From: Roseibacillus sp.
GTDB lineage: Bacteria; Verrucomicrobiota; Verrucomicrobiia; Verrucomicrobiales; Akkermansiaceae
Direction of reading: 5' to 3'
Assembly (NCBI GenBank): GCA_051251855.1
Contig: JBPOGI010000002.1
Location: 384,001-448,000 of the forward strand
Length of the DNA: 64,000 bases
Shown here: positions 30,001 to 45,000 of the stretch, in pieces
How positions within the stretch are numbered: position 1 is the first letter of the stretch
Layout: each line of letters begins with the position of its first letter
Made by a program: the position numbers

Positions 30001-33000
30001 CCGTTTTTCTTGCGTTTCTCTCGGCGCTAGCGATTGCGTTGGTGTGCTACTTTAAGAAGAAGCGGTGGCTTTAGAGGCCGTTTTTGGGGGCGTCTTGCTC
30101 ATGTGCCGAACGGTGAGGTGGGGTTGAAGAACGGTGTAGGAGAAGGACTCTCCATTGTTTGCCCGTCCAACGACAAGGTTGCGGAGACGTGAGAGTCGAA
30201 GTGAAGGGTTGCAGCCAGTGGTATCAAAACGAATAGGATTTGCTCCCTAGGCTCAGGGTTTCCTTGTCCTTCTGCCTCAAAAGTTTGATTTTGGGCTGTA
30301 GAAGGGATTCAAATCAAAATTTTCCCTTGTGTGGTGGTTTTCTGCTGTTCACAGTTTTCAAACACTCGGGTCCAATCTAGTTTTCACTGCTCGAAAGGTG
30401 CACCCCATCATCAAAAATCCATAAAAAGACACATGAAGAATACAATCAAATTACCTTTACTCGTGCTGGCTGGCGCAGCTCTGGCAACCAGCTCAGCTAG
30501 TGCTGTGACACTCCTCGTCAATTTCGGCGGTGGCGGGGATGTTGATGCGGCGGTCGCTGGCGATTACGCAGTTGCCGATCCCGCTGTGGATCTCGCTGCT
30601 CCAGTCGTTTTTCAGGGATCGGGGGGAGGCACTGCTGTGGGACTTGGCATGACTGTCGATATTAGTACCAACACTGGTAACTTCACTCCTGCCGACACCA
30701 GCATCTGGGGAACAACTCCTATTCTCGATAGTTATCTTTCACGACGGGATAATCCTCTCAATGTCACCGTGACCGGAATCGAGGAGTTGGCTCCTGGAAC
30801 GACATTCGACGTAACGGTCTATGGAGTTGGCGACGCGACCGACCAATGGGGGCCTATCAGCGTCACCTATAATGGTGTGACGACAGCAGAATTCACCACG
30901 GTTGCTGATCCTGCTGCTGCCGGAAACTCGAACGGGGAATTGACTCATGAAACCTTCACCTTAACGAAAGTAGCTGGAGTTGATTCAGTCGTCCTGAACA
31001 ATTCGGGTGTAGGCGGGTCACGTTGGCAAGCAATCAATGGCTTCTCGATCACTGGCACACCGATTCCTGAGCCTTCTTCAGCTCTTCTCGTTGGCTTGGC
31101 AGGATTTGCCTTCCTGAGACGTCGCCGATAGTCCTCTGATAGATTTTATCTTTAGAACCCACTTCGGCAGATTTGTCGAAGTGGGTTTTTTATTGGTTGT
31201 TTCCCGCAAGGTATCGGGGACAATGAGTTCCTGATTTTCACTTTCTAGATGAACAAAATTTTCCGAACGAGGGGAGCTTTCATCGTGCTGCTATCCTTTG
31301 TAGTCTTGGGTGTTATCTTCGTGGCTGGGAGTAGGTTTCGGTCTCAAAAGCAGACTTTCGCTGCAAAGGCTCAGCAAATCACGAAGTCCGAGGAGCTGAT
31401 TCTCGCCCTGCAGCGGATGCTCAGTGATATTTCTAAGAGTGGGAAGAATCGGCAGCTTCCAGATTTCGACGACAGTCGTTTTTTTGAACCCTCTGTATTG
31501 GTGAGAGACCTCACGCCGAAATACGAGATTGCTTCCACTGACAATCTCGAGGTGGCCCTCAAGAACTGGCAAATTGATTCGGAGAATAGACCCGTTCCCG
31601 CAACGAACCTGAGGCTCTTCAGCGCTCTCTTCGATGGTCTCAGCGCGGTAAGAGGTTTCAAAATGAAGATTGTCTCCGGCGAATTCTCCGACACCGAGGA
31701 CTCCTTTACCACCTCTCTTGCCGTTTCAGGATCCGGAAAGCTCACCTCTGAGAACGAGCTCTCTTTCGAAGGGCATTTGGATGTTGAGTGGAGGAATAGC
31801 GGCTCCGATGGCTGGAGAATCAGTCGCTGGGAATTGTTGGATTTCGAGAGTCATGAGAACCTTACGAAGACACCCTTCTTCACCCGTGCCAATGAGGCCT
31901 GTCTGCCGAATGCGGCGGAGCGGAGTAACGCGGAACTTTCCATTCACGACGAACTCATTAAGTCGCTCTTGCTGAACGGAGGTTGCACTCCACCAGGGCC
32001 TAAGTTCGAATACGACTTCGGCTTCGAATCAGCGGCAGCTTGTCCTAGTGTTTCAGTGGTTGATCTCAATGGAGATGGTTGGGATGATTTTTATTTGATG
32101 GCTCGGTGGGGGCGCAATCAGCTCTTTATCAATCAGCAAGATGGCACCTTTAAGGAAAGCGCCGCTGAATTCGGACTCGATATTCTCAATCACTGCACGG
32201 GAGCAGCCTTTGTTGACTTTGATAATGACGGGGACAAGGACCTCATCCTCAGCCGGAGCTACGCGCGCAGCCAAATCCTTGAAAATGTAGGAAATAGGTT
32301 TCACGATGTCAGTCGTTCCTGCGGGGTCGAACTTCCTGCGATGGCGACCTCGGTTTCTGTCGCCGACTATAATAGGGATGGTCTGCTTGATGTCTTCTTC
32401 ACTACCTACGGGAGCGACCGGCTCCTTCGTGAGTTTCTTCCCATGTCGCAGCAGGAGGAGCTAGCGGCGATATCATCTCAGGGGAAGCATCATCCGGTCT
32501 TGAATGCCTTGGGGGCTCCCAATGTCCTATTGGTCAATCGTGGGGGAGGGAAGTTCAAGGTGGCACCCGAGTCACCTCAATTGGCAGGATGGAAGACAAG
32601 CCTTTGCAGTGTGTGGGCGGACTATGATCAGGACGGAGATGCGGACCTCTATGTCAGTAACGACTTCGGTCCAGATGCTCTGATGAGGAACGACTACCCG
32701 AACGGGTTCAAAGATGTGACTCTCGAGGAGGGGCACGAGTCCATGGCTGGATTTGGGATGGGAGTTTCTTGGGGAGACTACGACTTGGATGGGGCACAGG
32801 ATCTCTACATCTCTAACATGTATAGCAAGGCTGGTCTCCGCATTGGGAAGCAGATTGAAGGGATAGACCCGCGATTCGAGAAGTTTAACAACGGCAACCG
32901 TCTCTACCGTCGAAAGGAGAATCACTTTGAGCTCACTTCAGGCTTAAAGCCACCTGAGCATCTTGTGGCGAAAGTCGGTTGGTCTTGGGGAGGGCAATTT

Positions 33001-42000: not shown

Positions 42001-45000
42001 AAGGCCCTGTCGCAGCAGAGACTTTGCTCGCGGATTTGGCCCTGCTTGAAGCCGATTCTGAGACGTTGAGGAGTAACGCCACCCCCTTCGCCGGTATCTG
42101 GGCTGACGGTCCACCTCTAGTGGGACCGAAAAGCTATGTCACCCGGCTTTTGGACTACAAGAAGCTGGCCGATGCCGAGCGTTATTACCGGCGCTACGTG
42201 GAGATGGAGCGCAGCCTTCCGGACACCCCTTCGGGACCCATGATTGAAGCCTTAAAGTTTCTCGCTCTTCTTGCTTCTCGAACAGAGAACTTTGCTCCCG
42301 CAGTAGCGCATCTTGAAGAAGCAATTTCTATCGTTCCAGAGGACCCTGAGCTGCAACAGCTTCTTAAGGAGGCTCAGGAGAAGCTTAAAGGTGCCACTCC
42401 GACGGATCTGTTATCGCCCTTGCTGGCCAAAGTGGAAGCCGAGCCAAAAAATGGGAAAGCTCATCTCGAACTTGCGGATGCTTATCGTAATCTTGGAGAA
42501 GCAGCGAAAGCGGTCGAAAGTTATAAGAACACGCTGAGGAACGATCCGAAATTGTTTGTGGCCGCTGGGAAGCTGGCTTGGATTCTCGCAACTCACCCCA
42601 GCCCAGAGATTCGTGAGCCAGAGGCGGCTTTGCAGTTGGCGAATCGACTCGTGGCGATGAACGGAGCAATGAATCCAAATTTCTTGGACCTTCAGGGAAT
42701 CGCGCTGGCAGCTAATGGTAAATATGAAGCGGCCGCAGAAAAAGCTGAAGCGGCCTTGCCGCTCGTGCCAGAAGGCTCTCCTTACCAGAAGGAAATTCGT
42801 TCCCGCCTGAGTCTCTATCAAGAGGGGAAGGCCTACTTTGAGGGAAAGGATTCTAAGTGATCCTTGATTGGCCCAAGTGACTTTCCATTGCGGTTTCCAA
42901 ATTCCGATTTGTTGTGTCGCCTTGTTCCTGTGAGAAAATGCGGCGGCTTTATAGGCGGTTTCTTCGGAAGAAAAAGATGCCCAAAGTCATTGAGGCGAAG
43001 AGGGGAAGGCTGGGCTCGGGCACGGCAGAGAAGGTGCCAAGCATCCTGACGGAGAAATCACCCGCCGGGCCGTTGTTAAAACTAAATTGCAAGCTATCGA
43101 CTTGCGAGAAGTCGGTGGCGCTCGCATTGGTGAAGGAGGAGAAGGGAAAGTCAATGAGGGTGTCGTTGGTGAGGGCGCTCGCTTGAAGGATTTGGAGGCT
43201 AGCGACCTGACTGTTGATGTCGGTTACTGAGACGCTGATTTCGAGATTTGCATCAGAGTCGGCAACGAGGAAGGCGAGCGAGGTAGCGCCACCTGCCGAG
43301 AGGTCGAAGCCACCGAGTCCGGCGCTATTGGCATCATAGGTGAGGGAGAGGTCGGCGGTGAGACCGGGGCCGAGTTCGGCAAAGTATTGGCCTGTGACAG
43401 AACTGACACCCACATTGGCAGTACGCGCAAAAGGGTTAGAGGTGACTGTTACCTCGATATTGCGCCAAGCTCCTGGAATGGAGTTTGAGGGATCTTGGAA
43501 GCTCTGTTGATGGGAGCCGGAGGAAACGGAGAGAGGGCTAGGGCCTGAGTCAAAGTTGTCGAGCGCCTGAACCAAAGTCAGTGCGGCTGGGCAATTGAAG
43601 GAGACGGCAAAAGTGCAAAGGAGAGTAGGGCGAATCATGTGGGGGAGGGAATCAGTTGGCTGAATAACAACTCCCTCTATGATGGGCTACAAGCCTTCTC
43701 GACGCCGTCTGAGACATACTCCGAAGCTAGATATTGCAATGAGTATCAAAGAAGAAGGCTCTGGAATCGATTGAGTGTTAACTGCTCTGACAGAGACTTC
43801 AGATATCACGATGTCGGGGGCTCCTTGGCCGGTAATATTGTGCACTTCTACCTGCAGGGAGGTGAGATTTTGCATGTCGATACTCTCAAAGACATCATAA
43901 GGAATGTCGACTTGCTGGCGAGAATAGTTGGCTTCTTGTCGGAAGACGTGGGTCTCAGGGAGTCCACCGAGGGATTCCATGGAGATTTGGATTTCGAAGG
44001 GGGCTTGTGAGAACTCGACTAAGAGTCCAAGGCAATTGGCGGCGTTCGACATGGTCATATCGAAGGTCATGCCGCTGGGGGCTTGATAGTCCAACCAAGT
44101 CCGAGCGCTCACCCCAGGGCCGTAGGAAAGCACGAAGATGCCATGTTCGGCGGCGATTTCGGCAGTGACGGATCGTTCTTCAGGGATGAGGTTCGCGTCG
44201 ATGCCTAAGTTGCGCGTCCATCCTTGAAGGAGGCTTTCATTCTGAAGAGGCATGGAACTTTGCTGGGCTTCGACGGTGCGTAGCGAGAGATTCTGAGAAC
44301 CTTGGGAAAAATTGTCGAGTTGACCAATGGTGACCGCGAAAGCTTGGCTAGAAAGGGAGAAGACAAGGCTCGGAAGTAGGCTTCTTGTGCGGAGGAGGTT
44401 GTTGAAAGAGGGGAAGGTAGGCATGAACATCAAGAGGACTTAAAAACTAAGAACCCTGAGAGCTGATTTCGTTCATGCTTTTGTTGAGATTTTTTAGAAG
44501 AGGAGGAGCCTACTGCGAAAGCAAGGCTGCAGAGTGAAGCTGAGTTGAACAAGTCGGGCTGTAGGACTATCAAAATGCTCTCCAAACCTCTTTTGTCATT
44601 GGAGTGCTCCGGAGAATCTTTTCCTAAAACCAATAGCTACCTCTCCATCGGGGGAAATCATGCTTTGGTGGACGACAGAGGTCGAATGGCACTGTGATAG
44701 GCAAAAAATCGAGAGCTTGCAAAAGCAGGGGCCGCAGGCTCGGGAGAGTGGCTTTCTAAGCTGCTGAGGTTGCTCTCGCTCATAGGGGGACGGATGAATC
44801 ACCGCAGGAATAGTAGCTTCGGGAAGGAACAGGCCTACCCTCAACATTCTTTGTTTTAAGGTAGCGGCTTAGAAAGACCACGTTCCCATTTCCTTGTCCT
44901 CGATATCACAAGGTCTCTTAGCACAGTGCCATTCGACTGAGGTTGATCCTCTTTTTTAGTCGGCGAGACCGAGCTCTGCCTTTCGGGCTTCGAGTTCTTC

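Follow-up and report, generated by a model that had tools for sequence, protein, structure and literature searches.

Candidate selenocysteine codons in three tandem FG-GAP/UnbV_ASPIC genes of Roseibacillus sp.

Three neighbouring genes of Roseibacillus sp. very probably encode proteins with selenocysteine (Sec) at an in-frame UGA, which comparative evidence supports as the best reading of the mid-gene TGA in all three. The genes, g1, g2 and g3, lie in the window, the 64,000-nucleotide stretch of contig JBPOGI010000002.1 that was analysed here. The preliminary description had proposed that three gene pairs split by the gene caller are single genes of 841, 1277 and 1265 aa, and each frame is open through one internal TGA. 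The domain layout it gave is likewise borne out by Pfam: FG-GAP_3/FG-GAP and UnbV_ASPIC occur in all three proteins (for g1, 1.1e-40 for FG-GAP_3 and 2.8e-14 for UnbV_ASPIC), and AhpC-TSA, marking the TlpA-like CxxC part, and TPR in g2 and g3 only. In window coordinates, the features are as follows.

31249-33774, plus strand: g1, candidate selenoprotein gene of 841 aa, FG-GAP propeller / UnbV_ASPIC, single frame through TGA
33091-33093, plus strand: g1 candidate selenocysteine codon, TGA, U615 of 841
34978-38811, plus strand: g2, candidate selenoprotein gene of 1277 aa, single frame through TGA
36847-36849, plus strand: g2 candidate selenocysteine codon, TGA, residue 624 of 1277 (ATG start)
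37585-37944, plus strand: g2 TlpA-like thioredoxin-fold domain, Pfam AhpC-TSA at 33.5 bits (cut-off 26)
37657-37668, plus strand: g2 CxxC (C-S-S-C), read from the sequence
38119-38808, plus strand: g2 TPR region, Pfam TPR families
39063-42860, plus strand: g3, gene of 1265 aa, single frame through TGA, architecture as g2
40896-40898, plus strand: g3 candidate selenocysteine codon, TGA, U612 of 1265
41649-41984, plus strand: g3 TlpA-like domain, Pfam AhpC-TSA at 28.2 bits (cut-off 26)
41706-41717, plus strand: g3 CxxC, read from the sequence
42162-42782, plus strand: g3 TPR region, Pfam

The g2 product runs from a signal-like N-terminal segment through an N-terminal domain without assignment to the FG-GAP propeller, UnbV_ASPIC, the TlpA-like domain and the TPR part. 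Its Sec is residue 624 when counted from the ATG at 34978 and residue 633 from a TTG at 34951. The g3 protein is a paralogue of g2 (78% identical), and g1 begins with a hydrophobic anchor or signal; the Pfam scan gave no TlpA-like and no TPR part in g1. The candidate Sec occupies the same site in all three proteins, at the junction of propeller and UnbV_ASPIC about 20 residues past the last FG-GAP loop, within the conserved motif D-L-U-S-x-[YF]-W-R. The sequence first given for this site, DTGDL-U-SVYWRQVVS, is exact in g2 and g3, while g1 reads GGDDL-U-SVYWRGAVC. The TlpA-like part of g2 and g3 fits the W-x(n)-C-x-x-C pattern of TlpA/ResA/DsbE and passes the Pfam cut-off for AhpC-TSA. It stays under the curated equivalog cut-offs for TlpA, ResA and DsbE (16-23 bits vs 123-230); despite the resemblance, the domain falls outside these equivalog families.

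The genome has its own Sec machinery, as had been reported: tRNA-Sec, SelB (331 bits), SelA (456 bits) and SelD (376 bits), the last itself with a TGA. UGA is also an ordinary stop codon here, ending 649 of 2541 frames of at least 300 codons. The genes g1 and g3 themselves terminate in TGA, and g2 in TAA. The TGA endings speak against a route free of Sec, by readthrough of UGA or its reassignment to Trp, Cys or Gly, as does the arrangement of exactly one internal TGA per gene, at a single site, followed by a SECIS-type hairpin. UGA-to-Trp reassignment has been reported for some Verrucomicrobiota (PMC13462651). For the present genes we consider such a route exceedingly improbable.

The distribution of relatives also supports Sec insertion. 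Our family sample of 201 genomes, different from the one used earlier, contains 60 genomes with a match and 141 without. The preliminary description had counted one TGA in each of 150 listed matches, and this result was repeated here: one TGA is present in 150 of the 150 matches listed for g2 (46-100% identity) and in 150 of the 150 listed for g1, four of which also have TAA or TAG, so that the pooled searches give 300/300 listed relatives. Many copies per genome had been claimed, and the counts of TGA-bearing matches in three family genomes, 11, 17 and 18, agree with this. The association with SelB recurs as well (56 of 60 genomes with the protein family, 40 of 141 without). SelB was not found in the remaining four of the 60; all four have SelA over the cut-off, and tRNA-Sec exceeds the gathering score in three, whereas the fourth scores 45 bits against a cut-off of 47. 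Among 23 genomes of one genus (g8), the sole SelB carrier is the sole carrier of the family. The D-L-U motif is present in 80/80 loci from other lineages, including Pirellulaceae and further planctomycetes, in keeping with the reported occurrence in Planctomycetota; the family is present in Acidobacteriota as well. SelB is over the cut-off in four of five gene-holding genomes of other phyla and was not found in one.

Alternatively, the TGAs could be true stops, with two genes per locus and a hairpin that serves translational coupling or attenuation. Gene callers do split the loci, and a GTG lies within the g2 hairpin at 36871. Against this arrangement, the frame is kept in every one of the 300 listed relatives, peptide conservation continues straight across the TGA, relatives with a sense codon at the site form one polypeptide, and the family co-occurs with Sec machinery. 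We therefore regard paired genes with true stops as highly improbable, and Sec insertion remains our reading of these loci.

Each TGA is followed by a short hairpin.

33109-33123, plus strand: g1 SECIS-like hairpin, GGUGCA-GUU-UGCACC (DNA GGTGCA-GTT-TGCACC), 15 nt past the TGA
36861-36877, plus strand: g2 SECIS hairpin, GCGACA-GGUCG-UGUCGC, 11 nt past the A of UGA
40910-40926, plus strand: g3 SECIS hairpin, GCGACA-GGUCG-UGUCGC, 11 nt past the A of UGA

The hairpin sequence of the preliminary description is thus correct for g2 and g3 and does not extend to g1. The 102 distinct Sec-form sequences compared come from three phyla or more, and in them a GGUC-looped hairpin of 6 bp begins 11 nt past the TGA. 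Stem pairing is kept in 609 of 612 cells (99.5%), with compensatory changes: pair 18-28 is AU in 42 sequences, GU in 40, CG in 15 and GC in 4, and pair 20-26 is AU in 97 and GC in 5. The observed pairing score was reached in 0 of 500 shuffles, and slid controls pair at most 66% of cells. The codons CAG-GTC-GTG occur in 96/102 Sec forms vs 6/80 non-Sec relatives with the peptide retained, which encode it through 34 distinct codon combinations. All six stem pairs form in 99 of the 102 Sec forms and in 3 of these 80 relatives. Folding energies are ordinary relative to shuffles (z = -1.66, -0.06 and -0.49 for the three hairpins), and a search of the region against Rfam, with E as high as 10 allowed, matched no family. 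The case for the hairpin is therefore made by comparison between sequences and not by folding energy. Taken by itself, the g1-type hairpin covaries weakly (94.2% of cells paired, a score reached by 38/500 shuffles) and has a U-U mismatch in 7 of 26 sequences; the G134 orthologue of g1 reads GGUGCG-GUU-CGCACC, where a G-C pair has replaced A-U in a compensatory way.

The GGUC loop had been likened to that of the genome's own fdhA SECIS, and the likeness holds: a GGUCU loop is present in both the fdhA-like gene and SelD, and the spacer is 11 nt in the fdhA-like gene too. Recoding of the fdhF/fdhA type likewise has a short G+C-rich stem-loop about 11 nt past the UGA; the apical loop is GGUC, as it also is in E. 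coli fdhF. This type differs from the present case in that the g2 and g3 stem has 6 bp and is bulge-free, and in that the host here is a predicted exported propeller rather than a cytoplasmic molybdoenzyme.

The residue that stands in place of Sec differs between two groups of relatives. BLASTP pairs U615 of g1 with the invariant Cys580 of a paralogue in the same genome, and both of the genome's own paralogues named earlier have Cys at the aligned site. Cys is present in 120/120 members of a paralogous subfamily, and D at -2 and W at +4, both invariant, anchor the alignment; a second Cys stands at -4 in 45/120 and at +5 in 33/120. Among close non-Sec relatives, Cys occurs at the site in 0/99 full-length rows, the residue there being N, S, E, D or Q, consistent with the earlier remark that Cys is rare there. 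A redox selenoprotein would not usually lack Cys in its nearest non-Sec relatives, and their N/S/E/D/Q residues would fit an oxygen-ligand or binding site.

The CxxC of the fused TlpA-like domain is intact in 111/111 Sec rows vs 2/99 non-Sec rows. On the tree, Sec rows show 0 changes of the motif over a length of 47.5, against 39 changes over 33.5 for non-Sec rows. Each trait changes three times, and the three independent pairs comprise two that are concordant and one without difference (sign test p = 0.5). This apparent coupling of Sec and CxxC favours a redox selenium site recycled by the protein's own thioredoxin-fold domain over a metal ligand, but only about three independent transitions stand behind it. 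The preliminary description had suggested that Sec may be a metal ligand rather than a redox residue. We disfavour that idea also because the paralogous subfamily has an invariant Cys, often with a second Cys 4-5 residues off.

Once inserted, Sec could nonetheless serve to ligate a metal or another bound group on the propeller, the role of the CxxC being unrelated. The residues of the close non-Sec relatives, never Cys, would suit such a site. FG-GAP propellers have D-x-D-x-D-G loops of the calcium type; one tandem relative (L118) carries an SCO1/SenC copper-chaperone-type domain. Strict retention of the CxxC only alongside Sec points the other way, and no His/Cys set specific to Sec forms is seen beyond the CxxC itself and Cys 681, which is kept in part. 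We consider a ligand role unlikely.

During translation, SelB with Sec-tRNA(Sec) very probably binds the short hairpin 11 nt (g2, g3) or 15 nt (g1) past the UGA, and the selenocysteine put in there yields one polypeptide of 841, 1277 or 1265 residues per gene. The N-terminal hydrophobic segment, as read from the sequence, predicts export. In the redox mechanism that we propose, Sec may then act as a redox-active catalytic residue on an extracytoplasmic substrate, and the oxidised Sec could be reduced by the C-terminal TlpA-like CxxC domain of the same protein. That domain would take electrons from a DsbD/CcdA-type membrane protein; a DsbD_TM gene lies elsewhere in the genome (C1:1070120). The TPR part might hold a partner or substrate. 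A TlpA-like domain is lacking in g1 and many g1-type genes (33/142 Sec rows), and g1 would need a reductant in trans. For re-reduction of a catalytic Sec by the protein's own CxxC, we see the chances as evenly balanced. More tentative is the wider proposal of a new kind of extracytoplasmic selenoenzyme, in which the propeller/ASPIC Sec would be catalytic, Cys would be no substitute in the orthologous clade, and the protein's own CxxC would re-reduce Sec via DsbD.

The UGA may also have a dual output, with translation stopping there when selenium is scarce; the product of about 610 residues, the propeller alone, would then have a role of its own. Such an output is conceivable for any bacterial Sec codon, and the part upstream of the UGA is a complete signal-plus-propeller unit. 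However, every non-Sec relative is one full-length protein, and we find a separate role for the short product decidedly unlikely.

Redox recycling by a fused domain has a parallel in Neisseria PilB (Trx-MsrA-MsrB), in which a DsbE/TlpA-like domain is fused to a periplasmic reductase. The thioredoxin-fold CxxC of PilB-type fusions recycles the neighbouring catalytic centre and is fed by DsbD. By analogy, the same scheme may apply to g2 and g3, although their catalytic domain is unrelated. Known selenoprotein families with a TlpA-like fold are likewise exported redox proteins that combine selenium with this fold. There, Sec takes the place of one CxxC cysteine, whereas g2 and g3 keep both Cys and have Sec in a different domain, about 270 residues upstream.

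The preliminary description presented the family as new, a claim that does not fully hold: S9 Table of Kim et al. (2016, PLoS One; PMC4807772) already gives, without analysis, four planctomycete ASPIC/FG-GAP selenoprotein candidates, which go unnamed in the main text of that paper. These candidates, known by IMG ids and likened to g1-g3 by description rather than sequence, have the same domain content and are also annotated as two adjacent genes split at the TGA. bSECISearch placed a SECIS in three of the four, and their closest non-Sec match has G, not Cys, at the site (PMC4807772). That work makes no mention of the Verrucomicrobiota expansion, of the fusion to TlpA-like and TPR parts or of a link between Sec and CxxC (PMC4807772). 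The statement that the family is absent from current lists is accurate for Table 1 of a 2026 review (119 selenoprotein families), the GOS 2008 supplements, NCBIfam and the available passages of deep-Sep. The family is widespread among marine bacteria and barely documented, not entirely new; what is new here is the link between fused-CxxC integrity and Sec in a propeller/ASPIC family.

Gene callers split these proteins into two 'hypothetical' genes, and the selenoproteomes of many marine heterotrophs are therefore undercounted; the hairpin and the motif offer a simple rule to correct annotations. If the wider proposal of a new kind of selenoenzyme is true, up to 18 paralogues per genome would make this family the largest selenoproteome share in marine Verrucomicrobiota and Planctomycetota, with an unrecognised selenium demand in oxic seawater. 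Sec here would sit on an exported propeller and not in a thioredoxin fold, but would be tied to a fused CxxC domain. This tie offers a way to test what bacterial CRTAC1/ASPIC proteins do and bears on the reason for selenium over sulfur in an oxidising compartment.

CRTAC1 (structure 9etn) has FG-GAP blades and a UnbV_ASPIC domain, as do g1-g3. It is not a selenoprotein, and the Sec-holding stretch does not align with it. Animal CRTAC1 has a C-terminal EGF-like domain, and the Pfam scan of g1-g3 gave no EGF-type domain. The three bacterial proteins are related to animal CRTAC1 but not orthologous to it; 9etn_A is matched at E = 1.8e-11 with P0001 and at 7.8e-33 with a family profile.

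The preliminary description took three neighbouring FG-GAP/UnbV_ASPIC genes, each split in two by the gene caller, to be single genes open through one TGA. Re-reading the frames confirmed this for all three, here called g1, g2 and g3:

31249-33774, + strand: g1, one frame with a single internal TGA at 33091-33093, 841 aa
34978-38811, + strand: g2, one frame with a single internal TGA at 36847-36849, 1277 aa
39063-42860, + strand: g3, one frame with a single internal TGA at 40896-40898, 1265 aa

The g2 and g3 proteins are 78% identical; g1 and g2 share 37%. FG-GAP_3/FG-GAP repeats and a UnbV_ASPIC domain are common to all three by Pfam; the g2 and g3 proteins have, in addition, TPR repeats and an AhpC-TSA (TlpA-like) domain containing a C-S-S-C motif. 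In each gene the TGA lies between D-L and S-V-Y-W-R. The longer motif DTGDL-U-SVYWRQVVS, earlier assigned to all three, is exact in g2 and g3; g1 differs from it outside D-L-U-S-V-Y-W-R. Each protein begins with a hydrophobic segment whose sequence resembles that of a signal peptide or an anchor. Terminator-like hairpins directly upstream of g1, g2 and g3 (31154-31189, 34906-34923 and 38944-38973) suggest separate transcription units, with the total of terminator-like sites not above that in shuffled sequence.

The source genome encodes tRNA-Sec, SelA (456 bits), SelB (331 bits against a cut-off of 242) and SelD (376 bits; contig C7, 93121-94050). SelD is a selenoprotein too: its frame contains a single TGA, and its hairpin has a GGUCU loop. 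TGA is also an ordinary stop in this genome: of the 2541 frames with at least 300 codons, 649 terminate in TGA, as do g1 and g3. Across 201 Akkermansiaceae genomes, the g2 core has matches (E <= 1e-30) in 60; the 150 matches listed, at 46-100% identity, each contain a single TGA as their only stop, and there are 102 further matches. The g1 core has matches in 58 of the 201 genomes, with one TGA in 150 of 150 among the matches listed and 84 further matches. Four of those listed have an extra TAA or TAG (G073:C50:5222-6952, G091:C66:10357-12078, G027:C78:118106-119866 and G176:C27:20514-22232) and may be decaying copies in paralogue-rich genomes. Where every candidate in a genome was scored, TGA-bearing genes made up 11 of 16, 18 of 23, 17 of 23, 2 of 3 and 1 of 1 matches in the five genomes concerned. 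The TGA is very probably a selenocysteine (Sec) codon, a reading strongly supported by comparative evidence.

Downstream of the UGA, g2 and g3 can form the hairpin GCGACA-GGUCG-UGUCGC, starting after 11 nt, and g1 the hairpin GGUGCA-GUU-UGCACC, starting after 15 nt. In the genome's fdhA-like gene, 11 nt separate the TGA from a 7-bp stem capped by a GGUCU loop. Single-sequence folding gives the three hairpins an unremarkable stability (z-scores of -1.66, -0.06 and -0.49), and a search over 33000-41100 at E up to 10 returned no SECIS family of Rfam. In the window as a whole, Rfam gathering scores were reached by two tRNA genes only:

17579-17665, + strand: tRNA gene
24507-24578, - strand: tRNA gene

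The evidence for these putative SECIS-type hairpins is comparative. We compared 102 distinct g2-type sites, taken partly from the family genomes and partly from 80 loci that a protein profile blind to the hairpin had picked out; a broad alignment (A1) gave no conserved stretch, so a closer one (A2) was used in the locus search. The 80 loci come from Planctomycetota (including Pirellulaceae, Planctomycetaceae and Phycisphaerae), several Verrucomicrobiota orders, Acidobacteriota, one Dehalococcoidia-labelled bin and one Proteobacteria-labelled bin. The hairpin is paired in 609 of 612 cells. Pair 18-28 occurs as AU (42), GU (40), CG (15), GC (4) and other (1), and pair 20-26 as AU (97) and GC (5). 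None of 500 shuffles reached the pairing score, and slid partners pair in at most 66% of cells. Compensatory changes alter the peptide (VVS to VVA or VVP, and Q to R). Since they cost amino-acid changes, it is the RNA shape that is kept. In g1-type genes the stem is another, GCGCAC-GGUC-GUGCGC, with the distance and loop start of the g2 type. Covariation there is weak, with 94.2% of cells paired, a score as high in 38 of 500 shuffles, and a U-U mismatch in 7 of 26 sequences. The g1 orthologue of one sampled genome (G134) has a hairpin pair changed from A-U to G-C.

As a control we used 80 TGA-less metagenome relatives, which have N (65), S (10), E (4) or Q (1) at the site. They retain the peptide SFFWRQVV(A/S) while their codons drift. 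The triplets CAG-GTC-GTG are found in 6 of these 80, among 34 distinct combinations, versus 96 of the 102 Sec forms; all six hairpin pairs are present in 3 of 80 versus 99 of 102. Pairwise alignment revealed no such hairpin in the genome's own Cys paralogues or in distant non-Sec relatives. We scanned the whole genome for open frames in which a TGA precedes a hairpin with a GGTC loop, and obtained fdhA, g2, g3 and three doubtful matches. On contig C1, at 1073305-1074702 (- strand), the combination falls in a Gly/Gln-rich low-complexity stretch; this TGA, about 3 kb from a DsbD-type gene that shares its strand, is likely to be a genuine stop.

Of the 201 genomes, 96 have SelB; as raw counts over related, non-independent genomes, these divide into 56 of the 60 that carry the family and 40 of the 141 that do not. 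The four family genomes without SelB are drafts of 86-96% completeness, in which SelB was not found even with the source genome's SelB protein as query. All four have SelA over the cut-off; tRNA-Sec exceeds the gathering score in three and reaches 45 bits (cut-off 47) in the fourth. In genus g8, SelB occurs in 1 of 23 genomes, the same single genome that has the family. Nearly all genomes of genera g12 and g15 have SelB and few have the family (8 of 23 and 5 of 22), so SelB presence is not sufficient for family presence. Outside the phylum, SelB is over the cut-off in four of five genomes with the gene and was not found in the fifth, a 2.3-Mb bin. Three loci (L098, L101 and L135) lie in bins that carry the labels Akkermansia muciniphila, Dehalococcoidia and Proteobacteria, perhaps through mis-binning or mislabelling. 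Of the last two, the Dehalococcoidia-labelled bin has SelB; in the Proteobacteria-labelled one it was not found.

What replaces Sec differs between two groups of relatives. None of the best 120 full-length g2 relatives has Cys at the site, 43 of them being unaligned there; the residues are S (19), D (9), M (8), L (7), A (7), T (6) and others more rarely. Two paralogues in the source genome have Cys at the aligned site. For one of these we examined the best 120 relatives, and all 120 have Cys there; NCBI annotates some of these relatives as 'CRTAC1 family protein'. In this Cys subfamily a second Cys stands at -4 in 45 of 120 and at +5 in 33 of 120. The alignment between the Sec-type and Cys-type groups is anchored on two invariant residues, D at -2 and W at +4. 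When a Ser-form protein was searched across the phylum, the only matches were distant non-Sec relatives from a single further family within the same class. CRTAC1 in the PDB (profile A5) aligned to the blades and ASPIC only, with the Sec site outside the alignment; TPR matches dominated a PDB search with profile A1.

Sec is linked to an intact CxxC in the TlpA-like domain. Our core alignment of propeller, ASPIC and TlpA-like domain holds 210 distinct rows, 111 Sec and 99 non-Sec, after removal of truncated loci, sequences containing unread letters and forms that lack the TlpA-like domain. The CxxC retains its two Cys in 111 of 111 Sec rows versus 2 of 99 non-Sec rows; the non-Sec rows otherwise show SxxC, CxxS, SxxS, AxxS and many more forms. 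In a cruder pairwise tally, three Sec rows appeared as 'CxxE'; these were C-P-V-C motifs that had been misaligned. A FastTree tree computed after excluding the trait columns places no CxxC change among Sec rows (tree length 47.5) and 39 changes among non-Sec rows (tree length 33.5). Sec state and CxxC state each change three times on the tree; of three independent pairs, two go in the same direction and one shows no difference (p = 0.5). The pattern is consistent with a redox selenium site that has its own thioredoxin-fold reductase, with the reductase decaying after loss of Sec. A further Cys corresponds to g2 position 681 (counting from 34951), where g2 itself has N and g3 has C. It lies about 48 residues after Sec, occurs in 76 of 111 Sec rows versus 1% of non-Sec rows and may be a resolving Cys. 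The source genome also has a gene for a DsbD-type membrane protein elsewhere.

The g2 and g3 products would be exported redox selenoenzymes whose Sec is recycled by the fused TlpA-like domain. We consider this the likeliest mechanism, with the chances of its being right close to even. Its main rival is a metal or ligand-binding role of the Sec site. The TlpA-like match is absent from g1 and from 33 of 142 Sec rows; no Sec-specific His/Cys set was found besides the CxxC and the partly kept position-681 Cys.

The family had been described as new. It is indeed missing from catalogues, and it was flagged once before as a candidate, in a supplement table (S9) of Kim et al. 2016 (PMC4807772), which has four such candidates from planctomycetes; the main text of that paper does not mention them. 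The claim of novelty therefore needs narrowing to a candidate family known from one supplement. A 2026 review (PMC13188914) compiles 119 prokaryotic selenoprotein families, and its Table 1 and section 7 hold no FG-GAP/ASPIC/CRTAC1 protein. In the accessible portions of the respective sources, none of the nine new families named by the deep-Sep paper is an FG-GAP/ASPIC selenoprotein and the GOS paper supplements do not mention such a family. No NCBIfam model exceeds its cut-off for the g1, g2 or g3 proteins, and full-text literature outside subscription journals yielded nothing relevant on FG-GAP/ASPIC/UnbV/VCBS selenoproteins.

Small PEP-CTERM proteins are encoded on both sides of and among the three genes (30331-31131, +; 34014-34859, +; 43687-44433, -), with an additional Laminin_G_3 lectin-like domain in the one that directly precedes g2. 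We surveyed the largest ORF within 2.15 kb upstream of 49 related loci (range L084-L163). These ORFs encode CotH and/or Lamin-tail-domain proteins (8), Laminin_G_3 proteins as in the window (5), further FG-GAP/ASPIC paralogues (6, one of them, at L118, with a SCO1/SenC domain), DUF1501 proteins (2) and molybdopterin oxidoreductases (2). No single upstream partner is conserved among the 49 loci, and neither they nor the window neighbourhood give a firm clue to the substrate. Elsewhere in the window, 51773-53515 (- strand) encodes an ankyrin-repeat protein fused to a YkuD L,D-transpeptidase domain.
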